Source of the DNA: Nitrospirota bacterium
GTDB taxonomy: Bacteria > Nitrospirota > Thermodesulfovibrionia > Thermodesulfovibrionales > Dissulfurispiraceae
Assembly (NCBI GenBank): GCA_963710375.1
Contig: CAVPZX010000007.1
Location: 26,986-90,985, forward strand
DNA: 64,000 nt
Direction of reading: 5' to 3'
Part shown: positions 3,542 through 32,121 of the stretch, one piece after another
Layout: the number at the start of each line of letters is the position of its first letter
Position numbering within the stretch: the first letter of the stretch is position 1
The notes under the pieces: generated by a model
What the model saw: only the letters and a program-made list of their open reading frames with translations
The model's database searches: none
What the model was told of the DNA's origin: nothing
Program-made: the position numbers and the translations under genes

Positions 3542-3569
3542 TACCTATTACCTATCACCAATCACCAAT
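3542..3569. repeat. 7-mer tandem repeat (YACCWAT x4)
   Basis: tacctat-tacctat-caccaat-caccaat between convergent genes; related units occur at 32077-32121. Confidence 0.7.
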
Positions 3570-3574
3570 TCGGC

Positions 3575-4111
3575 TCAGCCTCTTGATAGATAAAGAAGCA
3601 GGGCCCTTGCTATCGAGAAAAGTCGCAAGTAACGGTCATCATAATAGTCCCTGTATGTGTGGGGGAGAGAGACGTAACGCTCTTTGTCTTTGCTGTACGA
3701 CAGTGTTACCTCGGCAAATATCCCGTCTGTAAGATATATCCTGTGCGAGTAGTCCTTTGTCGAAGCGAGCACCAGCTTTGCGAAAGTAAGATAGCCGGGG
3801 TCCAGGTTTATCGTTCTTTTTCCATTAACCGACAATGAATTTTCAATCTCGCAGGTTTTCAACTTGGCTGCAGCAAGGCGGTCTTGTTCTATCAGTTCCT
3901 TGAAAAAAATGAATCTCCGGAAGATTGGCTCCCCCAGTTCCTCTTTATAATGCTCTGAGAAATCCCATTGAATGGCAGGGCTTTCCATAAGCACTTCACC
4001 GAAGCAATCTTCAAGATGATGGAGTGATTTGATATAAATGTCTTCCTTTGAAAACAGCGCTCCGACAAGGAGAAGAGCATTTTCGGGAGGTGTTGGGACT
4101 CGTCGCCTCAT
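3575..4111 (-). CDS. DUF4416 family protein
   Basis: RTINLDPGYL, LVLASTKDYSHRIYL and PHTYRDY motifs. Confidence 0.85.
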   Translation of the reverse strand: MRRRVPTPPENALLLVGALFSKEDIYIKSLHHLEDCFGEVLMESPAIQWDFSEHYKEELGEPIFRRFIFFKELIEQDRLAAAKLKTCEIENSLSVNGKRTINLDPGYLTFAKLVLASTKDYSHRIYLTDGIFAEVTLSYSKDKERYVSLPHTYRDYYDDRYLRLFSIARALLLYLSRG

Positions 4112-4117
4112 TGACGG

Positions 4118-4642
4118 CTATTCGTTTTCGAGGCGTGTCAGTGTGGCCCTTATGTCAGGCGAGTCCCATTGCAGCGGACCTACTACGTGGTGTTTGAGGG
4201 TACCTTTCTTATCTATAATAAAGGTTTCAGGCACGCCGGTAATGCCGTAAAGCTTGGCTGTGTCGCTGGTATCGATGAGTACGGGAAAAGCAAAACCTTT
4301 CGCTTTCAGGTACTCAAGCGCTTTTTCCTGGCCGTCATTGTAAAGCACAGATATAAAAATCAGCTTGCTATTGCCTTTTTCGATGTCGATCAGGCTCTGA
4401 ATAGAGGGAAGTTCTTCCTTGCACGTTTCACACCAGGAGGCCCAAAAATTCAGAAGTACCACTCTTCCCCTGAGATCGGCAAGCCTCCACAGCTTGCCGT
4501 CAGTGTCTTTAAGCTCGAAGGCAGGTGCCTCAAGGCCGACCGCTGCCTTGCTGACAGGATGTTCCCGGTTTTTTAAAGCTAAGATGATTCCGATAACGCC
4601 AAGAACCAGAATAACTGCGAGAATGACCCCTTTCGATTTCAC
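4118..4642 (-). CDS. TlpA/ResA-like thiol-disulfide oxidoreductase
   Basis: N-terminal membrane anchor, LLNFWASWCETC and GVPETFIID. Confidence 0.9.
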   Translation of the reverse strand: MKSKGVILAVILVLGVIGIILALKNREHPVSKAAVGLEAPAFELKDTDGKLWRLADLRGRVVLLNFWASWCETCKEELPSIQSLIDIEKGNSKLIFISVLYNDGQEKALEYLKAKGFAFPVLIDTSDTAKLYGITGVPETFIIDKKGTLKHHVVGPLQWDSPDIRATLTRLENE

Positions 4643-4657
4643 AGACTCAGGGCTCGC

Positions 4658-7109
4658 CTAATTTACCGAAACGAGCATCGAGGTCTCGGCTTCTTTAAAA
4701 ACCAGCTTGTCCTCCTCTAACACGACTGTCACTAAGGAAGTATTCTTGAACTTGTTCTTAATGAGGTCTTCTGAAAGAGGGTCCTCAATTTCACGGTAAA
4801 TCGCCCTGCGCATAGGCCGGGCCCCATATGTAGGCTGATAATATTTGTTGAGCAGCCATTCCTTGACCTCTGGAGACACATCGACCGTCAAAGCGTGTTC
4901 GGCCAGCTTCTTATTGGTTTCAACAAGCAGCAGATCGATAATAGACAGCAGATGTTCCTTCTCCAGTTGGTGGAAGACCACAGTCTCGTCGACACGGTTC
5001 AGGAATTCGGGATTAAAGGTCTTCTTGAGTTCGGACAACACATTTTCTTTGATCTTATCATACGCACTATCGGAAGTTACGTTGTGAAAGCCTAGCGGTG
5101 TTGCCTTTTCGATGATCCGTGCTCCGAGGTTGGAGGTCATAATAATAATAGTGTTTCTGAAATCGATCTTCCTCCCGTAACTATCCGTAAGAACACCCTC
5201 GTCAAGGATCTGCAACAGCGTATTGAACACATCCTGATGCGCCTTCTCGATCTCATCAAAAAGTATTACGGAATAGGGCCGCTTCCTGATTTTCTCGGTC
5301 AGCTGTCCACCTTCCTCATAGCCCACATAGCCCGGAGGCGAGCCTGTCAGTCGCGACACGTTGAAACGCTCCATATATTCCGACATATCGACTTTAACAA
5401 GAGCGCTTTCATCGTTGAACATGAACTCGGCAAGGGCCTTTGCAAGCTCTGTTTTGCCGACGCCGGTGGGTCCCAGGAAGAAGAACGAGCCGATAGGCCT
5501 GTTTTTGCTCTTCAGTCCGGCACGCGATCTGCGGATAGCCCGGGCAACAGCCCTTAACCCTTCATCTTGTCCTATAATACGCTGGTGAAGGACTTCTTCC
5601 ATTTTCAAAAGCTTCTCCGATTCAGTCTCTTCAAGCTTGTGCAAAGGGATGCCGGTCATTTTTGAAACAGTATAGGAGACATCCTCCTCACTCACAGATG
5701 GAATCTCTTTGGACAATGAGTCCTTCCATTTCTTATATTGAAGCTCGTAGGTCTTTTTCAGCTTGTCTTCCTCTGCCCTGACGGTCTGGGCCTTGTCGAT
5801 ATCGTGCAGACGGACATAGAGGCTTTTTTCTTTCGAAAGCTGGATCAGCTCGGTCTCCATGTCTCTCAATTCCTGCGGCATGGTTGCCCTTTTGAGCTTG
5901 ATTCTCGATCCGGTTTCATCTATTACATCGATTGCCTTGTCAGGGAGAAACCTGTCGGTAATATACCTGTCGGATAACTTAACGGCAGCCACTACCGATT
6001 CGTCACTAATCTTGACTTTATGGTGCTCTTCATAACGGGGCCGTAAACCCTTCAGGATATCTATAGTCGTTTCAGCGGCAGGAGGCTGGATGTATATTGA
6101 CTGGAACCTGCGTTCCAGCGCCCCGTCCTTCTCGATATACTTTCTGTACTCGGAGGGCGTTGTCGCTCCGATGCACTGCATCTCACCCCTTGACAGGGCG
6201 GGTTTCAACATATTGGAGGCATCGACCGATCCTTCAGCCGCACCTGCTCCGATAAGCGTGTGGAACTCATCGATAAAGATAATAATATTTTCGGACTGGA
6301 GAATTTCACGCATAACGGCCTTGAGCCTTTCTTCAAACTGTCCCCGATATTTTGTGCCCGCAATAAGGGCGCCGAGATCCAGCGAAATAATTCTCTTGCC
6401 CAATAGGCTGTCAGGCACATCGCCTAAAACGATTTTCTGGGCGAGACCCTCAACAATTGCGGTCTTGCCGACGCCGGGTTCGCCGATGATGGCAGGATTA
6501 TTTTTTATCCTCCTGCCCAAGATTTGCAGCACCCTCTCTATTTCATCCTCACGGCCTATCACAGGATCAAGTTTCCCTTCTATCGCAAGCAAGGTCAAGT
6601 CCCTGCCAAATTCGTCCAGGGCAGGAGTATTGGTTTTCCGCCGCTCTTTCTGGTTTGGCTGCTGGAACTGCGGTTTAATAGCAAGGTTAATAGTGAGCCT
6701 GCCTGGCAGCAAGAAGGTTTGCTCCCAGATTTCTTATTACTTTTCCGGCAACGCCTTCGTCCTCCCTTACTATACCCAGAAGAAGGTGCTCACTGCCGAT
6801 ATAGTTATGGCCCAGAAGCCTGGCTTCTTCAATAGCTAGCTCAAGTACCTTCTTTGCGCGGGGAGTAAAGGGGATGTCGCCGAACGTAAGGAGACTGCCT
6901 CCAATAGGAAGGTTTTTTTCGACTTCGAACTTTATCTCATCAACAGTAAGCCCCATTTTTTTTATGATGGTAATGGGAATACTGTCTTCCTCTCTTAATA
7001 TCGCCAGCAGAAGATGTTCGGTACCCAGGTAGTCGTTATTGCGCCTTTCCGCCTCTTCCTTAGCATATATGATGATTTTCCTGCCTCTTTCTGTAAACTT
7101 TTCAAACAT
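4658..7109 (-). CDS. clpC: ATP-dependent Clp protease ATPase subunit ClpC, split by a +1 frameshift at about 6698
   Basis: Clp N-domain ORF 6687-7109 plus ORF 4658-6712 with two AAA+ modules (GEPGVGKT, GPTGVGKT) and an LGF ClpP-docking loop. Removing one G (CAG G CTC) fuses them as ...AARQLTINL... Confidence 0.92.
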
Positions 7110-7158
7110 TTTTTCTCTCCTTGCAAATCACGCCTGTTAAATATCAACCCTTAAAAAA

Positions 7159-7188
7159 ATTCTACTCTTTGTACAGCGTTAATGTCAA
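7159..7188 (-). promoter_or_regulatory. Sigma70-type promoter of clpC
   Basis: TTGACA-18 nt-TAGAAT on the minus strand, about 50 nt upstream of the ATG. Confidence 0.65.
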
Positions 7189-7209
7189 CTAAACCGCCAA
7201 TTCGCTTAA

Positions 7210-7289
7210 AATTTTGAATGCTGAATGCTAAATTTTGAATTAATGAAAAAGTCCATAATTTATCATTTAAAATTCAACATTCAACATTT
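7210..7289. repeat. Palindromic 7-mer tandem element (AATKYTR family)
   Basis: Left arm aattttg-aatgctg-aatgcta-aattttg; right arm catttaa-aattcaa-cattcaa-cattt in inverted orientation. Confidence 0.75.
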
Positions 7290-7333
7290 CTTTGTTCTTG
7301 TATTCTTCTTTACCTATTATATATCTTTAAAGC

Positions 7334-9304
7334 ATGTATGTAAACGTGGTCTTTCCACTGAAAATACCTCCCCTTACTTATAAGGCCCCTTACGGAGCGC
7401 CTGCTGATCTTAGAGGAAGAATAGTACGGGCTCCGCTGATGGGGAGAAGCATCCGCGGTCTTGTCATGAGCACCAGCGAAAAGCCGGAAATGCTGATAAA
7501 AAAAGATATCAGGGAGATCCAGGAAATTTATCAAAATGTTATGTCAACCAGCGGCATTGCATTTCTGCAATGGCTGGCAGACTACTATCTCACTCCCGTG
7601 GGCACAGCTCTCAGAAGCAGTTTTTTTGAAGAGATTGCATCCATAGTGACGCAAGGGACAGAAGAGCAGGCGGCTGAGGGCGGGCCGGGGGGACATGCTA
7701 TAATTCCGTGCGAATCTGCAGATAATGCCGCGGTATCAGCTATCTGCACAAGCATCAGCAAGCATGGATACCGCTCATTCCTTTACCGCGCAGAGTCCTC
7801 AGGCGAAGAGAGAGCATTATTAATCTCGGCACTGACGCGTTTGAAGGACTCTCTTCGTCATGCGGTCATACTCGCGCCTGAAATTGCGCACCTGGAGTAC
7901 ATCGTATCACCCCTCAAAGACCTTTTCGGTGAGCGTGTTTGTGTGCTACACAGTAAACTTTCGAGAAAAGAGACTGCAGCTGCACTCAAAAGAATCATCA
8001 CAGATGTATCGGACATTGTTGTCGGGACGCGTTCCGCTATCCTTGCGCCTCTCAGGAAGGTTTCATTTATAGCAGTGCTGGCCGAGCACAGCCGTTCATA
8101 TAAGGCGGAAGAGGGGCTCAGATACAGCGGAAGGGACATAGCTGTCATGAGGGGGTTTCACGAAAAGGCATGCGTTCTTCTTTCTTCAATCTGTCCGTCG
8201 GTGGAATCTGTATATAATGTGAGTGTCGGCAAATATGTGATGCTTGAAAATGATAGACATATGTCGAAAGAGGGGCGTGCAGAACGACCTAAAATAAAAA
8301 TTATCGCTATGGGCGGCGCAAGGGGCGACCGTATGATTTTGGCCTCTGAACCCATTAAGGAAGCCAAACGCCTTGCCTCGCTGAATGAGCGGTTCCTTTT
8401 TCTGTCGAGCAGGAAAGGCTATTCGTTGCTGCGCTGTGAGGATTGCGGATTTGTGGAGCGGTGCGGGTTATGTGATGTGCCTCTTGTGTTTCATAAGGGA
8501 GAGGACGTCCTGAAATGCCAGTACTGTGGGTCCGCAGAGAAAAGCTCTGTATCGTGCAGTCAGTGCGGAGGAACCGCGATAGGGGCTTATGGCGCCGGCA
8601 CTGAGAGGGTCAAAGAGCAGGTCGAGAAATTGCTGAAAGCCGAGGCCCTGCTTGTTGAAAAAGGCAGGTCTGTTGGCCGTGTCATCACTGAGGACGGGGA
8701 TGACCTTGCTGCACTCGTGGTCGGCACCTCTTATGCAAAGGGTCTGGCTTACAAAAAAAGTGCCGAGCAAAGGCCATTTGGCGCAGCTGCTTTTCTTAAT
8801 ACGGACGCACTCCTTTTACAGCCGGACTTCCGGCTCTACGAGAGGGCGTTTCAGGAGATAATTACAGTTGCCCAGCTAGTCAAGAGGGACGGCACTGTAT
8901 TTCTTCAGACGAAAATGCCTCAGAACAATGTATTGCGTTTTATCAGGGCCTATGATTTCGACGGCTTTTACCGTTATGAGCTGGAACAGCGGAAAGCTTT
9001 TAATAATCCTCCTTATACGAAGCTCGTACTTTTTACTGTACCTTTCCAGGACGTTCAGAAAGAGCCGGGACGGGTGCTGGACGAAATGCAACGTGCCGCA
9101 GGCGCACTAAGCTCCGGAACTGTGGAAGTCCTTGGTCCTGTGGAACTCCCGTATCATTCAAAGAAATATCACCGCTGCATACAGTTGCTTTTGAAGTCAA
9201 AGGACAGAAATGCGCTGCACGATGCGGCCAGGGCTGTGCTGAAGGGACTTGGGAAGATAAAAGGCGCAAAAATAGTTGTGGAAGTTGACCCTCTGAAAAT
9301 CTAA
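7334..9304 (+). CDS. priA: Primosomal protein N' (PriA) with degenerate helicase motifs
   Basis: 3'-binding N-domain (LTY...G..V..P), VVGTRSA, four CxxC Zn pairs, GAGTERV, PDFR..ERAFQ, PPY and C-terminal VDP. Confidence 0.9.
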   Translation: MYVNVVFPLKIPPLTYKAPYGAPADLRGRIVRAPLMGRSIRGLVMSTSEKPEMLIKKDIREIQEIYQNVMSTSGIAFLQWLADYYLTPVGTALRSSFFEEIASIVTQGTEEQAAEGGPGGHAIIPCESADNAAVSAICTSISKHGYRSFLYRAESSGEERALLISALTRLKDSLRHAVILAPEIAHLEYIVSPLKDLFGERVCVLHSKLSRKETAAALKRIITDVSDIVVGTRSAILAPLRKVSFIAVLAEHSRSYKAEEGLRYSGRDIAVMRGFHEKACVLLSSICPSVESVYNVSVGKYVMLENDRHMSKEGRAERPKIKIIAMGGARGDRMILASEPIKEAKRLASLNERFLFLSSRKGYSLLRCEDCGFVERCGLCDVPLVFHKGEDVLKCQYCGSAEKSSVSCSQCGGTAIGAYGAGTERVKEQVEKLLKAEALLVEKGRSVGRVITEDGDDLAALVVGTSYAKGLAYKKSAEQRPFGAAAFLNTDALLLQPDFRLYERAFQEIITVAQLVKRDGTVFLQTKMPQNNVLRFIRAYDFDGFYRYELEQRKAFNNPPYTKLVLFTVPFQDVQKEPGRVLDEMQRAAGALSSGTVEVLGPVELPYHSKKYHRCIQLLLKSKDRNALHDAARAVLKGLGKIKGAKIVVEVDPLKI

Positions 9305-9321
9305 TTTCCCTCAGCATACAT

Positions 9322-9376
9322 CGCGTCGAAAAATATAAGGAAGGCAGGAGAAGGGTAGCACTTGTTTTTCGACGCG
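9322..9376. terminator. Perfect 12-bp inverted repeat between convergent genes
   Basis: CGCGTCGAAAAA ...31 nt... TTTTTCGACGCG downstream of priA. Confidence 0.45.
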
Positions 9377-9384
9377 CTGAAAGA

Positions 9385-9475
9385 GTGAATAGTGAAAGGT
9401 GAATGGTGAATAGTTAAAAGCTAAAGATTTTTTGTTTTACGTTTTTCCTTGAGCCGTTGACGATTCACTATTCAC
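9385..9475. repeat. Palindromic 7-mer tandem element (GTGAATR family)
   Basis: gtgaata-gtgaaag-gtgaatg-gtgaata ... cgttgac-gattcac-tattcac. Confidence 0.8.
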
Positions 9476-9481
9476 CTCTCT

Positions 9482-10189
9482 TTATTTGTAGAATTTCAGC
9501 AACTTCTCAGCTGGGATGCCCATGGAATATAGTGTTATCAGTGCCCAGTTTCTCAATGTACAGTAAATTACACCTTCTTTTTCCCATCTGCGGGGCGAGG
9601 TCCTAACTTTTTCTGAGATAATATAAATTTTGTCCCCCCTTCTTTTTATCCGCCGCATCAGTTCTACATCTTCCATTAATGGTATCTCCTTAAAATCACC
9701 TATCGAATGAAAATAATCCTTACTTATGAATATTGCCTGGTCGCCGTAAGGTGCGCCTGTAAGGCGGGAACGCAGGGAGGCCGCAATTTCGATTAACCTG
9801 AAAATGGGCCTTTTGGATTTTATGCCTAAATCAAAGGCCCCACCCACGAAGTCTCCTTTCCGCATGACCGAGGAGATTTTATTCAGCGCATTTTTCGGCA
9901 GTTCCGTGTCTGCATGCAAAAAAAGCAATATGTCTCCGCGGGCATTAATCGCACCTTGATTCATCTGATGCGCCCGTCCTTTTTTGCCGAGGATTTTTCG
10001 TACTTCACTCTTCTCGATGGCGCTTAGGGTTTCTCCATCAGGACTGCCATCGACGACTATAACTTCCACCTCTCCATCAAATGGCAGGTCAAAAATGCTG
10101 CCGATGGCCTCATTGATCATCGTTTCCTCATGCAGCACAGGAACAATAATCGAGATTCTATAGTTAGTGTGTGCGCTCTGTGGTTTCAT
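9482..10189 (-). CDS. TIGR04283 family GT2 glycosyltransferase
   Basis: ISIIVPVLHE, VVDG, GRAHQMNQGA, LLFLHADT, YGDQAIF, PLMEDVEL and TSPRRW. Confidence 0.9.
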   Translation of the reverse strand: MKPQSAHTNYRISIIVPVLHEETMINEAIGSIFDLPFDGEVEVIVVDGSPDGETLSAIEKSEVRKILGKKGRAHQMNQGAINARGDILLFLHADTELPKNALNKISSVMRKGDFVGGAFDLGIKSKRPIFRLIEIAASLRSRLTGAPYGDQAIFISKDYFHSIGDFKEIPLMEDVELMRRIKRRGDKIYIISEKVRTSPRRWEKEGVIYCTLRNWALITLYSMGIPAEKLLKFYK

Positions 10190-10805
10190 TTTTTCCCTTG
10201 CTTTTTAATAGCAACAACAGATCATCAAAGGTATCGACATCATTTAATACTCTCAGGACATGAACACTGAGGCCGGATTTCCCCAAAACTTTCATTGTTT
10301 GACGAAACACGGAATCAGTGCTCCATTCAATCCCCTGAAAAATATCAGGCAGAAAGGAGGTCTTGTTAAAGCCTATTAAATAATATCCTCCGTCATGAGC
10401 AGGGCCGATTACCGAGTCGCTGGAATCGAGGGCCTTAAACGCTTCATTAATTAATGAAATTGACAGATCGGGAATATCACTGCCGACGAGCAAAACTTTT
10501 TCAATGCCGTCTGAAAAGGCCTGAACAAAAGCACTCCACATTCTTTCGCCGAGATCTCTCCCTTGTTGAGGAGCATAGTAAAACGAATCCCCCAGCCAGC
10601 TTTTGATAATTTCGCCGGATTCGGGCGGATAAAAGCAAAGCCTGAAAAGATAGTTACCGTCCTTCAGGCCTTCCAAAGTGTTGAATGCGAGGCATTTATA
10701 GACATCAAGCGCCGCATCTTCACCAATTGCCTTTGCCAGGCGGGATTTAACTTTTCCCTTTTCAGGTGATTTTATGAATAGCAGGACTGCTGAACGGTCA
10801 GACAT
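10164..10805 (-). CDS. TIGR04282 family (DUF2064, CofC-like) transferase
   Basis: FIKSPEKGKVKSRL, QQGRDLGERM, GSDIP, GPAHDGGYYLIG and DVDTFDDL. Likely start MSDRS at 10805; the track start lies inside a repeat. Confidence 0.9.
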   Translation of the reverse strand: MSDRSAVLLFIKSPEKGKVKSRLAKAIGEDAALDVYKCLAFNTLEGLKDGNYLFRLCFYPPESGEIIKSWLGDSFYYAPQQGRDLGERMWSAFVQAFSDGIEKVLLVGSDIPDLSISLINEAFKALDSSDSVIGPAHDGGYYLIGFNKTSFLPDIFQGIEWSTDSVFRQTMKVLGKSGLSVHVLRVLNDVDTFDDLLLLLKSKGKNETTERTH

Positions 10806-10820
10806 ATTTTCCAAAAAATA

Positions 10821-10894
10821 AACCACAGAGAACACAGAGCTTCTTGGGTTTTTTTTCTGTATCAATAAAGAATCTCTCTGTGAACTCTGCGGTT
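10821..10894. repeat. Palindromic CACAGAG-family element
   Basis: aaccacagagaacacagag ... ctctgtgaactctgcggtt (inverted arms). Confidence 0.8.
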
Positions 10895-10913
10895 AAGTTA
10901 TTTTGAAGCATTT

Positions 10914-11447
10914 TTATTTCTTAAACAGTTTCAGGTACGTTCCATACCCCTCCTTTTCAAGGGCCTCTTTTGGAATGAAACGAAGTGCTGCCGAGTCCAG
11001 GCAGTAACGCTTATGGGTTGGAGGAGGGCCGTCATCAAAAACATGCCCTAGATGCGAGTCAGCGTAAAAGCTCCTCACCTCTTTCCTTTTTGTAAAGAAA
11101 GTCCAGTCGTCTTTATAAACAATATTTCCAGGTTCCAGAGGTTTTGTGAAGCTCGGCCATCCGGTGCCTGAATCATACTTGTCAGTTGAAATGAATAGTG
11201 GTTCGCCCGAGACAATGTCTACATAGATACCCTCCTTTTTGTTGTCCCAATATTCGTTGTGGAACGCAGGCTCGGTGTCATTTTTTTGCGTAACATTGTA
11301 CTGCATCGGCGTCAATATTTTCTTCAGTTCTTCCTGTGAAGGCTTCACGAAACCCTTGTCATTTCTTTCAGTGTCGGCTGCATGAGCGGACTGCATAAAT
11401 ATCACCCCCAATATAATCATTAGGCACGGTATCATTCTACGGAACAT
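10914..11447 (-). CDS. msrB: Exported peptide-methionine (R)-S-oxide reductase
   Basis: Signal peptide, GTGWPSF, HLGHVF and [11 protein letters not shown]; no Zn-binding CxxC pairs. Confidence 0.92.
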
Positions 11448-11517
11448 AATTGTTCAGCCTCCTTTTTGTGCTTCCTATATATAATGATAGCACGGATCTA
11501 CAACAAACTAAAGGGCT

Positions 11518-11565
11518 GTGAATAGTGGATAAAGACAGTGAAAGGTGAATAGTGAATGGTGAAAA
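11518..11565. repeat. Single arm of the GTGAATR 7-mer family
   Basis: gtgaata-gtggata...gtgaaag-gtgaata-gtgaatg-gtgaaaa, the same units as 9385-9412. Confidence 0.75.
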
Positions 11566-11689
11566 AGGAAACGAGCAAAAAAGCAGTGAACTGATTGATT
11601 TGACAACACCGGCTTAATCTGCTATACATTTGTATAACCAGCGCTGATGAATTAACAGGAAGCAGACAAAATACATGGAGGACATGGGC

Positions 11690-12019
11690 ATGAGTTTTAA
11701 CAAATATACTTATTTATTTTTATTTGCTGTCGTTTTTTTATGCGGAGGCTTTATTTATTCTTCAGTATCAGCAGAAGAGCCTAAAGATAAGTCTACTCTT
11801 GAGAAAAACAAAACAGAGATACTTAACGATATCGAGCTATTTGAGCATAGTGCGCACAGTACCAGGAGTTGTGTATCCGAAGCCAAAACCCCTGAGGAAT
11901 TGAGGCGTTGTCCTACAGAGGAATCAATACAGAAATATCAAAGAATTCAGGATGACCTGTTAGAAATAGGGATGACCCCTGATGAAAGAAGAATGTTCGA
12001 ACTAAGACCACAGAGGTGA
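11690..12019 (+). CDS. Secreted hypothetical protein
   Basis: GGAGG 8 nt before ATG 11690, signal peptide, and two Cys in SCVSEAKTPEELRRC. Confidence 0.65.
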   Translation: MSFNKYTYLFLFAVVFLCGGFIYSSVSAEEPKDKSTLEKNKTEILNDIELFEHSAHSTRSCVSEAKTPEELRRCPTEESIQKYQRIQDDLLEIGMTPDERRMFELRPQR

Positions 12020-12099
12020 ACAAAGCTTTTTTTCACACTCCTCAGGAAATTGCACGGCGTAACCTTTTGATTGTTTATATCGACTATATAATTAAAAAA

Positions 12100-12204
12100 T
12101 AAGGCAAAGGTTAAGGTTAAGGTTAAGAATGTAGGCAAGACTTCTTAATATCTTTTTTGCTTTCAGTCCATCTTTCTCAACCTTAACCTTTGCCTCAACC
12201 TGCT
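12100..12204. repeat. Palindromic 6-mer tandem element (GGTTAA family)
   Basis: aaggcaaaggttaaggttaaggttaag ... tctcaaccttaacctttgcctcaacctgct. The right arm is the reverse complement of 28264-28295 with one mismatch. Confidence 0.85.
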
Positions 12205-12220
12205 GTTATAAGGAGAAGTT

Positions 12221-12691
12221 ATGAAAACAAGAATATATTTCACAATATTAGCCCTGGGACTTTTGATGGTCTGTTTTGCGTCAGCCCAGCGGGTCCAGGC
12301 CGCGCTTGGCGGTTCTGTCAACTCGATCGAATCGGACAGAAAAGCAATGTCTGCAGTAAATAGAGGCGTGACAGCCGGCAATGGTTACACGGTCCAGGAG
12401 ATATACTCGCCATCCAACACAGTGCGGGAATACGTTTCGCCATCAGGTATTGTATTCGGAATTGCCTGGAACGGGCTGGTCTACCCTGATGTCACTCAGC
12501 TTTTGGGCTCCTATACAGACGAATATCAGAAAGCCCTGCAGCAGACCCCGCGTCAAAAAGGCAGCAGGCACCTGCGGGTGAAGTCGGCCGGTGCTGTTGT
12601 CGAGCAGTGGGGACATATGAGGGACCTGAGGGGCAGGGCCTATGCCCCGGCCTTGATCCCGCCTGGCGTGAGCATTGATGAAATCAAGTAG
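12221..12691 (+). CDS. DUF2844 family secreted protein
   Basis: Signal peptide, AALGG, VREYVSPSGIVFGIAWNG, LLGSY, GHMR and GRAYAPALIPPGV; adjacent to DUF3443. Confidence 0.88.
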   Translation: MKTRIYFTILALGLLMVCFASAQRVQAALGGSVNSIESDRKAMSAVNRGVTAGNGYTVQEIYSPSNTVREYVSPSGIVFGIAWNGLVYPDVTQLLGSYTDEYQKALQQTPRQKGSRHLRVKSAGAVVEQWGHMRDLRGRAYAPALIPPGVSIDEIK

Positions 12692-13898
12692 CATAATGTT
12701 TGTCCTTTTTGTTTTTTTTCTTTTGCCTGGTTGCGGAGGGGGAGGCAGCAGTAGCAGCACCAGCAGTCAAACAGCTAACGTACTTGCTCTCACTGTCAAC
12801 GGATCGACATGCGACTCGTCCATCGGCCCTTATATGAACGAACCATGCGTAAGTGTTACGGTTTGCACCCCCAACACCTCAACCTGTGTGACAATCAATG
12901 GCATTTTACTGGATACGGGAAGCTACGGACTCAGAATTTTTAAACAGGCACTGGGCAGCGTTTCTCTTACGCAATTGGCATCAGGTTCAGGTTCTCTTGC
13001 AGAGTGCGTTCAATACGCAGACGGCACGGCTGACTGGGGACCTGTTCAGACTGCGAGTGTCGTTCTGGGGAACGAGTCCGCTGTGCAGGTTCCAATCCAG
13101 GTAATAGACTACAAGTTTCCTACTGTCGCAGTTGCTGACAGTGTATGCCCGGGTTCAGACCAAACTCCGTCTGACACCGGATTCAACGGAATCCTCGGGG
13201 TTGGCCCCTTTGACCAGGACTGTGGTTCGACATGTGTAAATTCCAGTGTTGGGCAGTATTACACATGCAGCGGGTCCCAGTGCAGCGGAACTACGGTACT
13301 TCTCAGCAATCAGGTTTCGAACCCGGTGGCTGCTCTTCCCACTGACAACAATGGGTTGATAGTGGAACTCCCCACTGTTGCTGCCGGCGGTGCTGCTTCG
13401 GTGACCGGCTCTCTTGTGCTCGGGATTGGCACAGAATCTAATAATTCGTCTGCCGGGGTTACTGTGTATACAGTCGATCAGAATGATGAATTTGCCACAA
13501 CCTTTAGCGGGGTCACTTATGCCGATGTGCCTCCCAACTATAGCGGCAGTTTTATCGACACCGGTTCGAACGGGCTTTATTTCCCTTCTCCTACCTCAGG
13601 CACTTACAATGGCGAGCTGCCGGACTGTGGCGGCGTTAATTCCGGCTTTTTCTGCCCCTCGTCAACAACGAACTTTTCCGCCACTATTACTGGAGCCTCC
13701 GGCTCTCCGACTGGTACTGTCCCGTTCTCGATAGGCAACTTTAACACCCTCGCAAAGTCGGGCAATAACGTGTTCAGCGATATCGGCGCCAATAGTCCCG
13801 GTTTCGACTGGGGGCTTCCGTTCTACTTTGGACGAAACGTGTTTATCGGGTTTGAGAACCCGTCCAACCCTGGCACAGGTCAATATTTCGCGTATTAA
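12678..13898 (+). CDS. DUF3443 family lipoprotein, pepsin-like aspartic protease motifs
   Basis: Lipobox LPGC, Gly/Ser linker, ILLDTGSYGLR, NGILGVG, FIDTGSNG and FDWGLPFYFGRNVF. Confidence 0.88.
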   Translation: MKSSSIMFVLFVFFLLPGCGGGGSSSSTSSQTANVLALTVNGSTCDSSIGPYMNEPCVSVTVCTPNTSTCVTINGILLDTGSYGLRIFKQALGSVSLTQLASGSGSLAECVQYADGTADWGPVQTASVVLGNESAVQVPIQVIDYKFPTVAVADSVCPGSDQTPSDTGFNGILGVGPFDQDCGSTCVNSSVGQYYTCSGSQCSGTTVLLSNQVSNPVAALPTDNNGLIVELPTVAAGGAASVTGSLVLGIGTESNNSSAGVTVYTVDQNDEFATTFSGVTYADVPPNYSGSFIDTGSNGLYFPSPTSGTYNGELPDCGGVNSGFFCPSSTTNFSATITGASGSPTGTVPFSIGNFNTLAKSGNNVFSDIGANSPGFDWGLPFYFGRNVFIGFENPSNPGTGQYFAY

Positions 13899-14246
13899 GC
13901 ATCTTGGCAGCGATTATTATCGTCAGGAAATGCGCGGTGCATATGAGAGTCCTCCTATTTCAAATGCATCCCCTGGATTAAGAAGCCCTGCGGTGCCGGG
14001 AAAGAATTACCATGAGCGGAAAAAATATCACTATGCGAACATTTCACCTCGAAAATACAATTGCAAACCGCAAAGTGAAAAGAGAGACTTCCATCAACAA
14101 ATAAAAACCTGATATTCCAGATAGTTATCTGTGCCATGGCTCAAAAACCCTACCTTTGGCTGTGGTTAACTATAGTACTTAATATTTGGTATGTTTTTTG
14201 CTAGATAAATATAAGGTGACAGCAATTAAATGAAAAGGGGTCACAT

Positions 14247-15026: not shown

Positions 15027-15120
15027 TTACTCGATAACTCCACATCGCTCCTGACATAGATCATTAATTCTTCTTGTCCCAAACAATACAATCAATCCTG
15101 TACTGTCTGAATTGAAGATG

Positions 15121-15154
15121 AATACTTGACAAAATCAGTAGGCCATTATAGCAT
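15121..15154 (+). promoter_or_regulatory. Sigma70 promoter overlapped by an IscR type-1-like operator
   Basis: ATACTTGACAAAATCAGTAGGCCAT resembles IscR type-1 boxes; TTGACA(15126)-17-TAGCAT(15149). Confidence 0.7.
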
Positions 15155-15160
15155 ATTTAC

Positions 15161-17111: not shown

Positions 17112-17114
17112 ACT

Positions 17115-21388: not shown

Positions 21389-21401
21389 AAAAACAAAGCG
21401 A

Positions 21402-21528
21402 ACCACAGAGACACAGAGACACGGAGAAAATAATTTATTATTCAAAAAGAAAAATTAAAAATTAATGAAGACCTCATTTTTTCACTTTATTAACTGTGAT
21501 TTTCTCTGTGTCTCTGTGTCTCTGTGGT
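21402..21528. repeat. Palindromic CACAGAGA 8-mer element
   Basis: 30-bp arms accacagagacacagagacacggagaaaat / attttctctgtgtctctgtgtctctgtggt (one mismatch) around an AT-rich spacer. Confidence 0.9.
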
Positions 21529-21553
21529 AAAATTTAAGGGGGAGGGGGCTGCG

Positions 21554-22036
21554 ATGGAAAAAGAGATGATGGATATAGAAAGCAAAAGCCTGGACCTTGT
21601 TGAGGCCGAATTTATCACTATTAAACAAAGTACAGTCAGGGCCGTAGACGGAGGTAACATTGAGTTGCAGCAGGTAGGTGCGCTGAGCATTGACGGCGAG
21701 CGTGTTGAGGTGACCCAGGGGGCCGCATTACTCATGAAGGGGGAAACACTTACCCTGAACCAGAGCATCGGGGTATTGGCCGCAGGCGGCACGACAAACC
21801 TTAACTTCTCATTTACGCCGGTCGCTGTGGCTTCCGGAGAAATTAATGCGAATAAGAGCGCTGTTGGGATTCTGGCCGGCAATCAGGTCAACGCCAATAA
21901 CAGCACCGCCATTCTCATGATCGGCAAAGATATAGACGGTACGGTGACCACGCTTCTGGATTGGCGCAGCGCGCTTGCCATCGGAGCTGTCGCAGGCGGC
22001 ATCTTCGGACTTTTTTCTCTATTCAGAGGGCGCTGA
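21554..22036 (+). CDS. Hypothetical protein with beta-solenoid-like repeats and a C-terminal membrane anchor
   Basis: GGAGG SD, roughly 15-aa periodic small/hydrophobic pattern, and C-terminal ALAIGAVAGGIFGLFSLFRGR. Confidence 0.7.
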   Translation: MEKEMMDIESKSLDLVEAEFITIKQSTVRAVDGGNIELQQVGALSIDGERVEVTQGAALLMKGETLTLNQSIGVLAAGGTTNLNFSFTPVAVASGEINANKSAVGILAGNQVNANNSTAILMIGKDIDGTVTTLLDWRSALAIGAVAGGIFGLFSLFRGR

Positions 22037-22041
22037 AAACA

Positions 22042-22869
22042 ATGGTTTCCGGTTTGGCAAGGGATACGATACGTCTTGCCCTTCTCGAAGATCTCGGACA
22101 TGGCGATATAACCTCATTGCTGATCGTGGCGGAAGGCAAGGTTGCGAAAGCAACCATACGCGCTAAAGAAGACCTCGTCGTGGCCGGAATGCCTTTTGTC
22201 AAAGAGGTTTTTTCGGTAGTTGATCCCTGCATAGAAATAAAATCTTTTTTTAATGAGGGTGACGAGATAGTAAAGGGAGCGGTAATAGCAGAGGTGACGG
22301 GAAATGCGCGGGCACTGCTCGCAGGAGAGCGGACTGCGCTTAACTTACTTCAGCGTGTATCCGGCATCGCAACGCTGACGCATTCGTACAAGAAGCTTGT
22401 TTCAGACCTGAGAGTCAAAATTGTTGACACGCGGAAGACCTCGCCCGGAATGCGTTTTTTTGAAAAGTATGGGGTCCGCACCGGCGGCGGTGATAATCAT
22501 CGTTACGGGCTTTATGACGGAGTGCTCATAAAAGACAACCACATCAGAATTGCCGGAGGGATCAAGGAAGCTGTGAGGCTGGCAAAAAAAACTCACCACT
22601 TGTTGAAGATAGAAGTGGAAGTCGGAAATTTTGATGAACTCCGGGAAGCTCTGGACGCAGGGGCGGATGTAATTATGCTCGATAACATGTCCTCAAGTGA
22701 TATGACGCAGGCTGTAAAGATTACAAACGGCAGGGCACTTCTTGAGGCATCAGGCAATATAAATATTGATAATATCAGAACAATTGCAGAAACCGGAGTT
22801 GACCTGATATCCATCGGTGCCCTGACTCATTCAGCAAGGGCTGTGGATATAAGCATGAAAATAGTCTGA
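22042..22869 (+). CDS. nadC: Nicotinate-nucleotide diphosphorylase (carboxylating)
   Basis: EDLGHGDIT, DTRKT, NHRYGL, LIKDNH, IMLDN, EASG and SIGALTHS. Confidence 0.96.
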   Translation: MVSGLARDTIRLALLEDLGHGDITSLLIVAEGKVAKATIRAKEDLVVAGMPFVKEVFSVVDPCIEIKSFFNEGDEIVKGAVIAEVTGNARALLAGERTALNLLQRVSGIATLTHSYKKLVSDLRVKIVDTRKTSPGMRFFEKYGVRTGGGDNHRYGLYDGVLIKDNHIRIAGGIKEAVRLAKKTHHLLKIEVEVGNFDELREALDAGADVIMLDNMSSSDMTQAVKITNGRALLEASGNINIDNIRTIAETGVDLISIGALTHSARAVDISMKIV

Positions 22870-22872
22870 ATT

Positions 22873-23904
22873 ATGGAAGAAATTACATATAAGAAAGCAG
22901 GTGTTGATATTGACGAGGGGGACCGCTTTGTCCGCCTTATTTCACCTGTTGTAAGAAAAACGTTCAGGCCTGAAGTCCTCACTGACATCGGTTCCTTCGG
23001 CGCCTTATTTAAGCTTGACACCGTACGTTATAAAGATCCGGTGCTGGTGAGCGGGACCGACGGCGTAGGGACGAAACTCAAAATAGCATTCATGGCGGAC
23101 AAGCATGATACAGTGGGCATTGACCTTGTGGCAATGTGTGTTAATGATATTATCACCCTTGGTGCAGAACCGCTTTTTTTTCTCGATTATTTTGCCACTG
23201 GTAAGCTCGATGCAGATAAGGCCAAGGATGTGGTCAAGGGCATTGCCGACGGATGCAGCGAGGCGGGGTGTTCTCTGATCGGAGGAGAGACCGCTGAAAT
23301 GCCCGGTTTTTACCAGGACAAGGAATATGATCTTGCAGGTTTTGCTGTAGGAGTCGTCGAAAAAAGCGGTATTGTGAGCGGCGAAAGGATCGAAGCCGGC
23401 GATGCGATTATAGGGATAGCATCGAGCGGTCTTCACAGCAATGGATATTCCCTGGCCAGGAAGATTTTTTTTGAAGTCGCGCATTTTGAGGTTGATAAAT
23501 ACATGCCTGAGCTGAACGCTTCACTCGGGGAGATACTGCTTGCCCCGACAAGAATATATGTCAATGCCGTTAATGCGCTTAAAGAACACGCCGACATAAA
23601 AGGAATGGCGCATATCACCGGAGGCGGTATTACCGGCAATGTGCCCAGGATTTTAAGGGACGGACTTACCGCTGTGATAAAGGAGAACTCGTGGCCTGTC
23701 CCGCCGGTTTTTAATGTCCTGAAGGCTCTGGGCAATGTTCCGGACAGCGATATGAAAAAAACATTTAATTTGGGTATCGGTTATGTTATAGTAGTTCCTG
23801 AAGAAGTTTCTGACCTGTCCATTTCAAATTTAAAACATTATGGATTTGATGCATATCATATTGGTTTTGTTGAAAAGGGAGGGGGAAAAATTCGGTATGC
23901 ATAA
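22873..23904 (+). CDS. purM: Phosphoribosylformylglycinamidine cyclo-ligase
   Basis: YKKAGVDI, GTDGVGTK, GGETAEMPG, SSGLHSNGYS and HITGGG. Confidence 0.97.
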   Translation: MEEITYKKAGVDIDEGDRFVRLISPVVRKTFRPEVLTDIGSFGALFKLDTVRYKDPVLVSGTDGVGTKLKIAFMADKHDTVGIDLVAMCVNDIITLGAEPLFFLDYFATGKLDADKAKDVVKGIADGCSEAGCSLIGGETAEMPGFYQDKEYDLAGFAVGVVEKSGIVSGERIEAGDAIIGIASSGLHSNGYSLARKIFFEVAHFEVDKYMPELNASLGEILLAPTRIYVNAVNALKEHADIKGMAHITGGGITGNVPRILRDGLTAVIKENSWPVPPVFNVLKALGNVPDSDMKKTFNLGIGYVIVVPEEVSDLSISNLKHYGFDAYHIGFVEKGGGKIRYA

Positions 23905-28244: not shown

Positions 28245-28263
28245 GCTGCATCCTCCCGTTTAA

Positions 28264-28306
28264 AGCAGGTTAAGGCAAAGGTTAAGGTTGAGAAAAACCC
28301 TTGACC
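28264..28306. repeat. GGTTAA-family element arm
   Basis: agcaggttaaggcaaaggttaaggttgagaaa is 31/32 identical to the reverse complement of 12173-12204. Confidence 0.85.
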
Positions 28307-28312
28307 TTTTTT

Positions 28313-28880: not shown

Positions 28881-28939
28881 ACAAATAATTGGTTAAAGTA
28901 AACGAGTAGTGGGTCAAAGCAGCGCCGGAGAGAGCGTTT

Positions 28940-28996
28940 ACCACAGAGCCACTGAAACACAGAGGATAAAATGCCTGTATCTGTGCCACTGTGGCT
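28940..28996. repeat. Degenerate CACAGAG-family palindromic element
   Basis: accacagagccactgaaacacagag ... tctgtgccactgtggct. Confidence 0.6.
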
Positions 28997-29034
28997 GATT
29001 TTAACAATACAAATTACTTTGCGAGGGGACATAA

Positions 29035-29820: not shown

Positions 29821-29847
29821 GCTTATACAACTTATCAGTGGTAGAAA

Positions 29848-30696
29848 ATGAGAGCTTACCACGAGACGCTGATTGTTTTATTGGCGGCCTCGCTTATTTT
29901 AGTCGTACTTTTTTTTCTCGCCGTTTATTTGCCCCGCCTTTTCAAGAAAAAGACACAGGAACCAGAACCTATTGAAATTAATACTCTTATGGGTGCTTTC
30001 AGTGCGCTTGGCGGTGAAATCAACTCCCTTAAAGAACAGCTCATATTGAAGGAAAGGCTTGCCGCGCTAGGAGAGGTGGCAGCAGGCATTGCTCACGAGT
30101 TCAGGAACCCCATGGGCGTTATTGCCGGGTATGCTAAGCTGCTCCTTAAAGGGCTGGAGGGTTCTGACGACAAAAAGGAAATTGTCCAGGCAATCCTGAA
30201 TGAAATTGAAGAGATGAACCGGGTCATGGAAGAACTGCTGAAGTTTTCAAAATCCGAACCAATAAACAGGATAGACATAGACCTGGTAAGTTTTATTACG
30301 GATACTGTAAAGAGCATGGGGCAGACGGCATCCGAAATCAAATTCTCACCTTGTGGTCCTGTTTCAATCAAGGGAGATAAGACCCTTCTCAGACAGGCCC
30401 TTAAAAATCTTCTTCAGAACGCTGTCCATGCAGGCGATAAGATAAGGATAGATGTCGAACACACTGACCTGTCCGGCAGGCACGGGGTATATATTGCCAT
30501 TAAGGATAACGGTAAAGGCATACCGGAGAGTGATTTTAATAAGATATTCATGCCATTTTATACTACAAAGAGCAGGGGCGCAGGAATCGGGCTGGCTCTT
30601 GTGCAGAAGATTGCATTAGCTCATGGGGGCAGCGTGAGTGTGAACAGTAAAGAAGGGAAGGGCAGCACGTTCCGGCTGTTTTTGCCGGTGAATTAA
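29848..30696 (+). CDS. Sensor histidine kinase with a single TM and no sensor domain
   Basis: AGIAHEFRNP, NLLQNA, DNGKGI, FYTTK and GAGIGL. Confidence 0.92.
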   Translation: MRAYHETLIVLLAASLILVVLFFLAVYLPRLFKKKTQEPEPIEINTLMGAFSALGGEINSLKEQLILKERLAALGEVAAGIAHEFRNPMGVIAGYAKLLLKGLEGSDDKKEIVQAILNEIEEMNRVMEELLKFSKSEPINRIDIDLVSFITDTVKSMGQTASEIKFSPCGPVSIKGDKTLLRQALKNLLQNAVHAGDKIRIDVEHTDLSGRHGVYIAIKDNGKGIPESDFNKIFMPFYTTKSRGAGIGLALVQKIALAHGGSVSVNSKEGKGSTFRLFLPVN

Positions 30697-30712
30697 TGGA
30701 CAAACATTAATT

Positions 30713-32065
30713 ATGCAAACTATTCTTATTGTTGAAGATCAGCAGAGCATGGCGGACATGCTCGCCAAGACGCTTGAGTCTGAAGGTTACACTGTTCGCT
30801 TAGCCATGACGTTAAGGGACGGGCTTGACGCGCTTTCCTCCGAGGACATCAGAGCGGTGATTACCGACCTGAGACTGCCTGACGGGGACGGAATGGAAAT
30901 GGTGAAGGCAGCAAGGGAAGGGTCCCCTTTTATCCCGACAATAGTTATGACCGGGTTTGGCAGTATTGAAATTGCGGTCAATGCAATCAAAAAAGGGGCT
31001 TACGACTTTATCACTAAGCCGTTTGACCCCGACCATCTTATTTTGCTCCTTAGACGAGCCCTGGAAGAGCAGACTCTGCAGAAGGAGAATCTTGTCCTTA
31101 AGCACGAATTCTCAAAATTTCTTAAAATGCCTGAAATTATAGGGCTGAGCAGCCAATGGACTAATATAATGGAAAAAATCAAAAAAGTGGCGCCGCTCAA
31201 AACTACGGTACTTGTTCTTGGTGAAAGCGGAACTGGAAAGGAACTCGTTGCCAGGGCCATCCATTATCTAAGCCAGAGGGCCAAATATTCTTTTATTGCA
31301 GTTAATTGCGCTGCAATACCTAAAGATTTAATTGAAAATGAAATATTCGGACACGAAAAGGGAGCTTTTAGCGGGGCTGCTGAGATCAAGCCAGGCAGGT
31401 TTGAACTTGCCGACAGGGGCACTATATTCCTTGATGAGATCGGTGATATGGAACTCTCATTGCAGTCAAAACTGTTGCGTGTGCTCCAGGAAAATGAGTT
31501 TGAACGCGTGGGCGGAACAAAAACCGTACGTGTCGATTTGCGCGTTATCGCGGCAAGCAACAAGAATCTCGAAAAAGAGGTTTCAGGAGGACACTTCAGG
31601 GAGGACCTGTTTTACCGGTTGAATGTTTTCCCTATAATTATTCCACCCCTGCGGGAACGGAGGGAAGATATTATTCCGCTCGCAAGGCATTTTATCGGTA
31701 TGTTTTCATCCGAAATGAACAAAAAGGCTCCGCTGCTTTCTCCTGAATCCGAAAGGATGCTGCTGGAGAATGAATGGAGGGGAAACGCAAGAGAACTGAA
31801 AAACATTATAGAACGGGCGGTTATCCTATGCGACGGTCAGGTTCTCCAGCCGGAGTATTTCAATTTTGTCAAATGCGTACCAGAAGAACAGATAGGTGCT
31901 GAAGCCCCTTTATCTGAAATTGCCCAATTTGCAGTTAAAACCGCTGAAAAATCCCGGATAGAAACCGTTCTTACTCAAACAGGCGGCAATAAGAGCAGGG
32001 CAGCCGAAATACTTAAAGTAAGTTATAAAACATTGCTTACTAAGATCAAGGATTACAGGATATAA
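30713..32065 (+). CDS. Sigma54-dependent response regulator (NtrC/PilR-like)
   Basis: Receiver, GESGTGKE, GAFSGA, FLDEIG, FREDLFYRL, WRGNAREL and a Fis-type HTH. Confidence 0.93.
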   Translation: MQTILIVEDQQSMADMLAKTLESEGYTVRLAMTLRDGLDALSSEDIRAVITDLRLPDGDGMEMVKAAREGSPFIPTIVMTGFGSIEIAVNAIKKGAYDFITKPFDPDHLILLLRRALEEQTLQKENLVLKHEFSKFLKMPEIIGLSSQWTNIMEKIKKVAPLKTTVLVLGESGTGKELVARAIHYLSQRAKYSFIAVNCAAIPKDLIENEIFGHEKGAFSGAAEIKPGRFELADRGTIFLDEIGDMELSLQSKLLRVLQENEFERVGGTKTVRVDLRVIAASNKNLEKEVSGGHFREDLFYRLNVFPIIIPPLRERREDIIPLARHFIGMFSSEMNKKAPLLSPESERMLLENEWRGNARELKNIIERAVILCDGQVLQPEYFNFVKCVPEEQIGAEAPLSEIAQFAVKTAEKSRIETVLTQTGGNKSRAAEILKVSYKTLLTKIKDYRI

Positions 32066-32076
32066 TTAAAACATCT

Positions 32077-32121
32077 AATAGGTTATAGGTTTTTCCAATT
32101 ACTCATCACCTGTGACCTATT
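32077..32121. repeat. Degenerate 7-mer palindromic element (ATAGGT/ACCTAT)
   Basis: aataggttataggtt ... ccaattactcatcacctgtgacctatt; related to 3542-3569. Confidence 0.55.

Follow-up and report, generated by a model that had tools for sequence, protein, structure and literature searches.

Word-armed hairpins and small gene cassettes in a Nitrospirota genome: a probable, barely described mobile system, with a proposed link to bacterial 7-base repeats and rRNA spacers

Introduction

Repetitive extragenic palindromes (REPs) and their paired forms (REPINs) are many non-autonomous palindromic intergenic copies tied to a rare cognate gene, that of the RAYT protein, which is flanked by the same repeat; they nest and cluster. 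MITEs, the miniature inverted-repeat transposable elements, are small and non-coding, have inverted ends and undergo copy-number bursts. The elements considered here lie in a stretch of 64,000 nucleotides from a Nitrospirota bacterium (contig CAVPZX010000007.1, positions 26,986 to 90,985), called the window throughout. They are made of short words repeated in tandem (an arm), a spacer and inverted words (the opposite arm). The original prediction held that they are empty derivatives of a mobile system in which each word family has a cognate small protein.

In Coxiella, the intervening sequence (IVS) of 23S rRNA is a stem-loop with an S23p open reading frame (ORF) and tandem heptamers before the start codon, and it is cut by RNase III; in the available passages of that article the origin of the IVS is left unclear, S23p is considered as probably not expressed, and helices 9, 25 and 45 are named (Warrier et al. 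2016, PMC4990558). The available passages on the heptamer repeats of Xanthomonas and Nostoc describe intergenic arrays, 83% of the sites being conserved between two species (Rehm et al. 2015, PMC4692102), and those on the TAACTGA repeats report no evident transmission mechanism (MacGregor 2015, PMC4679880). The homology between PF05635 and Avd, a protein of diversity-generating retroelements (DGRs), is already in print, as an excerpt of PMC10053308 indicates. According to these excerpts, the parts (IVS with S23p, heptamer pairs, TAACTGA repeats, PF05635-Avd homology) are separately known. No paper joining these genes with dispersed word arrays was found in a search that left out supplements and most subscription papers, so a prior description is possible; the passages seen of bioRxiv 10.64898/2026.10.21.760802, PMC10392669 and PMC5524665 hold nothing relevant.

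The present analysis covers the coupling of protein clade to word, the dependence of family size on the gene, gene deletions caught between relatives, the turnover of sites and the swapping of families inside 23S rRNA. The earlier reading of the copies as mobile-element derivatives is supported. They likely belong to a mobile system that has barely been described, and by which both bacterial 7-base repeats and rRNA spacers would be explained. The explanation that we favour by a little over even chances is that gene-less hairpins come from small cassettes and are spread at the DNA level by the cognate protein, which would act in trans and rely on host recombination.

Gene-bearing cassettes

The genome under study is G000, the window being within its contig C7; relatives are numbered G001 to G008 and beyond, and fetched loci have L numbers. 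Six TIGR02436 genes of G000 score above the cut-off and 6/6 are flanked by arrays, each with a different word (AATAGGC, GTGAATA, GGTTAA, GGACTGA, GAAGTTGA and GGGCAAA); the expectation that some copies would enclose an ORF is thus confirmed. Five of the six lie, together with the highest element density, at about 120-460 kb of contig C5, where several adjoin genes of sugar-nucleotide or polysaccharide type (by inspection).

The six proteins belong to PF05635 and are weakly similar to Avd profiles (a score of 32.7 bits for a cut-off of 80). The AlphaFold model of a homologue (pLDDT 98) matches Xcc0516 with a TM score of 0.96 and also BT_0352 and Avd, the latter with TM 0.83-0.85 and 12-13% identity. 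A pentamer structure is already solved for four-helix-bundle homologues. Apart from the six genes and one weak match in a kinase region, no further four-helix-bundle remnant was found in G000.

Proteins were gathered from 41 relatives and from a sample of 151 genomes, all of one phylum; part of the listed matches was fetched, strong ones being favoured. From the 138 domains fetched, 13 were dropped (coverage below 85%) and 125 kept. Arrays flank both sides of 94/125 full-length homologues vs. 8/300 control ORFs, and either side of 119/125 vs. 74/300. The neighbours of cassette genes are co-directional (62 vs. 3 upstream, 56 vs. 5 downstream, the rest ambiguous). In-frame stops mark the armed four-helix-bundle genes L029, L062 and L064 (G016) and L022 (G008) as decaying cassettes; L009 (G016) is intact.

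GxxExxY and RAYT genes had also been named as candidate enclosed ORFs. The first holds for relatives: GxxExxY (TIGR04256) genes are present in 6/41 genomes, and a TIGR04256 search found none in G000. At L156 and L157 the gene lies between clear ACCACAGAG arms that resemble the CACAGAG family of the window; arms of ACCACAGAG type are weaker at L158, L162 and the fragment L163, and L159, L160 and L161 carry other words. RAYT was rejected as a cognate gene, the single PF01797 gene of G000 being flanked by an unrelated inverted repeat. No other enclosed gene and no transposase between arms was seen in G000, by a scan so insensitive that it recovered only 2/6 known cassettes; rplF, holA, rplA and a regulator merely sit between two separate elements.

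Turnover, dispersal and gene loss

Gaps between orthologous genes were compared over 460 kb each of G003, G005 and G008, whose genes are about 88% identical to those of G000. The 423 comparisons give 344 gaps with no element, 34 with an element in the relative only, 25 in G000 only, 11 with different families and 9 with the same family. A family is thus common to only 9 of the 79 comparisons with an element, the false-positive rate being 0.5%. Presence/absence polymorphism, as expected for mobile elements, is therefore extensive, at these gaps as well as at the window sites. Sites are re-used by other families more than expected in G003 (8/13 vs. 22/152, p 3e-4). At C3:283831 four genomes show four families; nesting of elements is also seen. 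Whole gene-less copies are dispersed: 32/130 spacers fall in cross-site clusters, with 28 edges vs. 1 in shuffles.

The derivation of empty elements from filled ones is shown at two orthologous sites, where the gene is deleted and the arms are kept. At C5:326743-326848 of G000, a gene-less hairpin of GGTTAA type has retained the arm together with the first codons of a gene that is intact in G002 and G007. Conversely, of the cassette at C5:373453, G007 has only the two arms and the first 95 nt or so of the gene, and G002 only a remnant. The cassettes L051 of G001 and L159 of G003 are wholly missing at the corresponding G000 site, and at two more sites an empty element of another family is present. 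It must be noticed that the full cassette L012 (G006) and the gene-less GGTTAA element at G000 C5:372738 both directly follow the same tRNA-like gene.

In several filled/empty pairs, host bases are exchanged, at times including the stop or start codon (by inspection). Direct repeats at the flanks of 177 elements are no longer than under shuffled pairing and none reaches 8 nt, very recent insertions being outside this sample. This bears on the possibility that a conventional transposase, encoded elsewhere, has the elements as its MITEs or REPINs, as inverted ends, small size, dispersal and the presence of one Y1/RAYT-like gene in G000 would suggest. With no target duplication above that level, with unrelated repeats around the Y1 gene, with opposed words no more complementary than arms from different copies (except GTGAA, 25% vs. 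18%) and with many word families per genome that track a non-transposase gene, this possibility is very improbable.

Coupling between word and protein clade

For 112 non-redundant proteins, protein identity correlates with word similarity (Pearson 0.31), a value reached in 0/2000 permutations (maximum 0.07). The word is common to 85% of 34 protein pairs at 70-90% identity, to 57% of 56 pairs at 60-70% and to 1-3% of the pairs below 50%. Common location does not account for it: close pairs at non-homologous sites share the word in 53/84 cases, distant pairs with a homologous flank in 0/61. The protein is under purifying selection (median dN/dS 0.096, 35/50 pairs computable). dS is about 1-2, so synonymous sites are near saturation while words persist; the word is thus constrained and not a mere hitch-hiker. 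The column after NIAEG had the top score as word-determining residue but is confounded with overall identity (0.55 vs. 0.49); it is retained as a lead only. Residues Q30, R33, S37, N41, E44 and E67 make up a conserved cluster.

Gene presence also predicts family size. Among the 41 genomes, GAAG matches number 56 in G000, 73 in G001, 37 in G002 and 47 in G003, exactly the four that possess the clade; the remaining 37 have 0-3, with 0 in the close relative G005. The same holds, with exceptions, for GGTTAA (at least 6 matches in 6/6 clade genomes, at least 5 in 4/35 others) and for GTGAA (at least 38 matches in 5/5 genomes with a GTGAA-armed gene, at least 30 in 1/36 others). The predicted cognate protein for each family therefore stands as a statistical coupling and falls short for two families: CACAGAG has its cognate in relatives only and AATKYTR depends on 1/125 loci.

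Several observations weigh against the explanation favoured here. By the measure used, 31/84 close protein pairs do not share the word. GGTTAA arrays with no gene found occur in G001, G003 (40 matches), G006 and G025, and G024 has 37 GTGAA matches with its cognate gene not found. The GTGAA group is defined by its arms, and different words are found with three related EGAAR proteins. In G000 itself, arrays of CACAGAG, AATKYTR, AATTACG, AAGCAGT and TCGGAGA have no cognate gene, and dispersed CACAGAG pairs have similar spacers all the same. Across GTDB, where many AATKYTG loci are cyanobacterial, the partner arm is present within 160 nt downstream in only 14/125 loci and a four-helix-bundle gene lies within 600 bp in 1/125; arrays of this word are thus not always paired. 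Re-use of sites is not significant in G005 (2/12 vs. 8/138) or in G008 (1/11 vs. 4/88). For cassette arms, pairing is better on the sense strand (62/93, p 8e-5), an indication of a role as RNA, and to our knowledge no catalytic activity is known for the fold, whose closest structures are Xcc0516, BT_0352 and Avd. Finally, the genomes are incomplete and related, and kin are not independent, so that the p values and the tests on family size overstate.

One could suppose that the cassette is a founder only: host processes such as recombination or template switching at palindromes would spread the hairpins independently of the protein, which would be kept as an array-binding regulator of its own or host mRNAs. 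The word families whose genome has no cognate gene for them agree with this, and the left arm that supplies the gene start region, together with the co-directional neighbours (62 vs. 3 upstream), fits translational control. A conserved regulon is, however, at odds with the turnover of families at 88% gene identity; moreover the host genes have no relation to one another (valS, efflux, pilus, rRNA), and close relatives without the gene are also without the family, as G005 is for GAAG. We consider this explanation unlikely.

Architecture and placement

G000 contains 461 arrays of period 7, where its order-5 Markov copy has 62, and 82 of period 8 vs. 11, i.e., an excess of about sevenfold for both. 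Paired elements were counted with family patterns written from the observed words. The purine-rich arm comes first in 177 pairs and the reverse arrangement is found 0 times. Arms have 2-6 words; the spacer has a median of 43 nt, its first half being A-rich and its second half T-rich. A further 79 arrays are unpaired under the pairing rule, many with a visibly degenerate partner.

According to a simple purpose-made gene caller, 121 elements lie in co-directional, 25 in divergent and 18 in convergent gaps, and 12 overlap a called gene; gaps of at least 60 nt number 998, 328 and 176, respectively. In co-directional gaps the element starts at a median of 7 nt past the upstream stop and, where the gap leaves at least 60 nt of slack, 21/37 elements are within 20 nt of the stop vs. 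6.2 expected. Targeting may be the reason why elements lie just past stop codons and within the loops of existing hairpins, or else harmless insertions have survived there. Element arms supply stop or start codons at several sites. The GGGCAAA arrays at G000 C5:194815 and C5:195231 directly precede pilin-like N-terminal motifs and may be translated in frame as a part of the leader peptides.

This distribution is relevant to a reading of the elements as static intrinsic terminators, REP-like stabilisers or slippage repeats that pair by chance. The position 7 nt past the stop and the T-rich tails after 31/121 copies could be so explained, and arrays of period 6-8 can arise by slippage. However, 78 of the 121 co-directional elements are in tight operon junctions, convergent gaps are not enriched (18/164 elements vs. 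176/1502 gaps, p 0.90), T-tracts are commoner antisense (54 vs. 31), 0/7 elements in 3001-23000 were called terminator-like and one family lies inside 23S rRNA. Intrinsic terminators have a short GC stem, a loop of 3-8 nt, a U-tract and enrichment at operon ends or in convergent gaps, a description from which the elements depart (median loop 43 nt). Chance pairing is excluded by the polarity (177 vs. 0) and the shared spacers. Elements turn over between relatives, so the static alternative is not borne out; as an origin it is already largely refuted, and we judge it hardly tenable.

Folding gives complementary information. Opposed words are mostly imperfect complements, the variable positions being mostly mismatched. 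Arm-to-arm covariation is absent for GGTTAA, GAAG and AATAGGC and slight for GTGAA. Arms combined from different copies fold nearly as well as the real ones, thus perfect pairing is not the conserved feature. Selection would then not be for a perfect hairpin; what seems to be recognised is a degenerate word on a stem with periodic mismatches.

An insertion site in 23S rRNA

In both 23S genes of G000, a GGTTAA element is a 138-nt insert in a stem-loop (153-nt stem-loop, minimum free energy -83.5). It lies at about model positions 282-288, which we take to be helix 15, and these copies are gene-less. The families are swapped here too. The loop holds GGTTAA in G005 and G007, GAAG in G002 and one G003 copy, a word of AGTAAGT/GTGAAT type in another G003 copy and a degenerate insert in G006; G001 has no insert and a 21-nt stem-loop. 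One locus of this comparison did not match the anchors. It must be noticed that G003 is listed with 6% contamination and that its 23S copies L180, L186 and L190 differ in inserts and flanks, the third being divergent (72-83% identity). Because GGTTAA and GAAG hairpins stand there, and because the Coxiella IVS combines an S23p ORF with heptamers, the gene-less 23S IVS here is one insertion site of the same element class.

An rRNA location raises the possibility of an RNA route, in which an Avd-like pentamer would bind hairpin RNA excised like an rRNA intervening sequence and recruit a host reverse transcriptase (RT). The match to the Avd fold (TM 0.85), the weak Avd profile matches, the better sense-strand pairing of cassette arms and the RT present in 7/9 same-genus genomes can be read in this way, as can, in the passages on Coxiella, the heptamers of an IVS cut by RNase III. 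On the other hand, RVT_1 is absent from G007 and from G000, the genome that ranks first in matches for two of the three patterns GAAG, GGTTAA and GTGAA; G008 has 9 RT matches and only 0-4 matches to these patterns, so RT content does not track array counts. L089, the one Avd-like gene beside an RT, is without paired arrays. Neither target duplication nor orientation bias is seen: subfamily copies occur in both orientations, with no pattern relative to host gene or GC skew (27 copies), and gene-less copies have no strand folding bias (60/121 sense). The absence of RVT_1 from G000 and G007, the two orientations and the lack of a sense-strand folding bias argue for a DNA route, and the RNA route appears quite unlikely.

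Copies of the window

All 13 copies noted at first in the window were located with their units (ten stretches at 3542-32121 and three GAAGNTGN loci, also called GAAG loci); 11 fold as hairpins and 2 are lone arms. Each copy was compared with 200 dinucleotide shuffles. Ten hairpins have z scores of -4.4 to -10.5, except 28938-28998 (z -2.6); the truncated hairpin at 28262-28310 is weaker (z -2.0, 8/200 shuffles being equally good), and the lone arms at 3542-3569 (z -0.55) and 11518-11565 (z -1.34) do not fold. A Pfam scan of 66 different ORFs (nearly all gene-like ORFs, out of 192 mechanical ones) found no transposase family, in agreement with what had been stated for the window.

The valS site illustrates the turnover. 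The gene-less hairpin of the CACAGAGA family at 21402-21528 (z -10.5) starts 13 nt past the valS stop and directly precedes the next ribosome-binding site. The same site holds CACAGAG in G001, GTGTCAAA in G003, AATKYTR in G002 and another word in G007, and is empty (19-29 bp) in G004, G005, G006 and G008, i.e., four words across five genomes and four genomes empty. Similarly, the CACAGAG hairpin at 10821-10894, after the msrB stop (z -5.1), corresponds to CACAGAG in G002, to GGTCATA in G003, to GAAG nested in GGTCATA in G001 and to empty sites in G005 and G008.

Dispersal is seen for the gene-less AATKYTR hairpin at 7210-7289, in the divergent clpB-N/priA gap (z -4.4): copies 90-95% identical, with the same spacer and sharp ends, are at the unrelated sites C3:179346 and C8:194877. 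At the orthologous site the element is present in G003 and absent from G002, G007, G008 and G009, and G005 has an insert resembling an insertion sequence (IS). The gene-less GTGAAYR hairpin at 9385-9475 (convergent priA/glycosyltransferase gap, z -5.3) belongs to a dispersed spacer subfamily, and the cognate gene is at G000 C8:73121; the site is empty in G008 and nested with a second family in G003. The lone left arm or arms of the same family at 11518-11565, in a divergent gap, correspond to a complete element in G003. For the gene-less GGTTAA hairpin at 12100-12204 (z -5.7; cognate gene at G000 C5:318234), G003 has GGTTAA, G002 and G008 have none and G005 has another palindrome.

The truncated GGTTAA hairpin at 28264-28306, in the scpB/LysM-NlpC gap, corresponds to a lone arm in G003, to the AATTACG family in G001 and to no element in G005, G006, G007 and G008. 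The short CACAGAG hairpin at 28940-28996, in a divergent gap, is matched by other families in G003 and G005 and by none in G007 and G008. The short AATAGGT hairpin at 32077-32121, 11 nt past the stop of a sigma-54 regulator (z -4.35), has a related cognate gene at G000 C5:373453; G008 has a longer AATAGGC element, G003 an IS-like insert and G007 none. The lone right arm of the ATWGGTR/AATAGG family at 3542-3570 lies in the convergent DUF498/DUF4416 gap, and its left flank has no synteny in the relatives fetched.

Three copies belong to the GAAGNTGN family. At 40352-40497, a hairpin with an extra right arm (z -8.3; cognate gene at G000 C5:208077) is present in G003, and the site is empty in G008 (19 bp). 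The hairpin at 46997-47076, at an acrB-like/outer-membrane-factor junction (z -4.7, a mismatch in every period), has no orthologue among the relatives fetched. The hairpin with an extra arm at 50635-50749, at the junction of a paralogous efflux operon (z -5.6), was probably duplicated together with that operon; it has a spacer word in common with 46997. These two operons of the resistance-nodulation-division (RND) type (HlyD, AcrB, OEP) form a facing inverted pair at 42706-55354, and both carry a GAAG hairpin at the AcrB/OEP junction.

Other inserts use the same gaps. Palindromic inserts without words (REP-like, 100-250 nt) are seen at 9320-9384 and in the orthologous gaps of G001, G002, G003 and G005, at times within the loop of a word element. 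IS-like inserts are those of G005 at 7210, with ends that are a long direct repeat, and of G003 at 32077. Elsewhere in the window, 32256-41245 carries an ORF of 1724 aa with only a weak PilY1 match, followed by N-methyl pilin-like genes, i.e., a type IV pilus adhesin locus. At 58969-64000 (+), a gene of Ser/Thr kinase-ATPase-GAF-PAS-histidine kinase type (domains after the kinase by inspection) is split by a frameshift into overlapping frames, 58969-59994 and 59759 to the window end, which may be a pseudogene or an assembly error.

Proposed mechanism and implications

A cassette is a purine-rich word array, a four-helix-bundle or GxxExxY gene and an inverted array, from which the gene-less hairpins would derive. 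That the elements are mobile is highly probable. That the cognate protein is needed for their spread is probable; as to the route, the balance tips slightly towards DNA. Each word family would be recognised by the protein of its own cassette through binding to the words. Acting in trans with host recombination enzymes, the protein would copy the hairpin into new sites as DNA. Insertion would be a replacement-type event, with no duplication and often with a few tens of host bases exchanged, stop and start codons included.

A wider statement, to which we give even chances, is that these elements are a widespread, transposase-free mobile class. Its protein, either an Avd-fold pentamer of about 120 aa or a PD-(D/E)XK nuclease of small size, would read a word of 6-11 nt that a few of its residues determine, and would bring hairpins armed with this word to sites next to stop codons and to RNA loops. 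Heptamer repeats and rRNA IVSs would then have this class as their common source, and DGR Avd would have been recruited from it. If true, the unexplained excess of 7-base repeats, the origin of the 23S IVS and the function of PF05635 and GxxExxY proteins are linked in one system, and a natural code tying a tiny protein scaffold to many short words could serve as a tool. With its six protein/word pairs in one genome, G000 is a ready matrix for binding and mobility tests. Since the stop and start regions of housekeeping genes are rewritten within a genus, the elements shape operon evolution.

Comparison with known systems

With MITEs, the elements have in common small size, non-coding content, inverted ends and copy-number bursts; they differ in having no target-site duplication, no fixed terminal repeat and no parent IS. 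There is also a resemblance to REP/REPIN: non-autonomous intergenic palindromes, a rare cognate gene with the same flanking repeat, nesting and clustering. However, the cognate is a four-helix bundle of about 120 aa or a PD-(D/E)XK protein and not a Y1 transposase, and the arms are degenerate tandem words instead of a conserved palindrome of 20-40 nt. DGR Avd (PDB 4DWL, 8UB7) has the same fold; the cassette proteins fall far below the cut-off of its profile, and next to the armed genes of G000 there is neither an RT nor a template or variable repeat.

Like the repeats of PMC4692102 and PMC4679880, as described in the available passages, the elements are intergenic 7-mer arrays, often convergent pairs, with a patchy distribution. 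Unlike here, no cognate gene is given in the passages searched of these papers, and the 83% site conservation excerpted from PMC4692102 contrasts with the 9/79 comparisons that share the family here. The word AATKYTG is found in many Nostocales records, mostly without a downstream partner arm, and may resemble the cyanobacterial STRR repeats, which are heptamers in tandem between genes of Nostocales.

The Coxiella IVS, in the passages of PMC4990558, is alike in several respects: the protein family is the same (S23p/PF05635), the stem-loop has its ORF in the loop and heptamers precede the start. The six G000 cassettes enclose a PF05635/TIGR02436 ORF, as an ORF-bearing IVS does; the 13 window copies and the rRNA copies do not. 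Like 23S IVSs, the gene-less rRNA copies of G000 are an extended stem-loop replacing a small 23S loop, and the window copies are not in rRNA. The rRNA site, at about model positions 282-288, is distinct from helices 9, 25 and 45 named in that article's excerpts. Unlike the Coxiella IVS, nearly all copies here are in mRNA intergenic gaps and belong to about a dozen word families.

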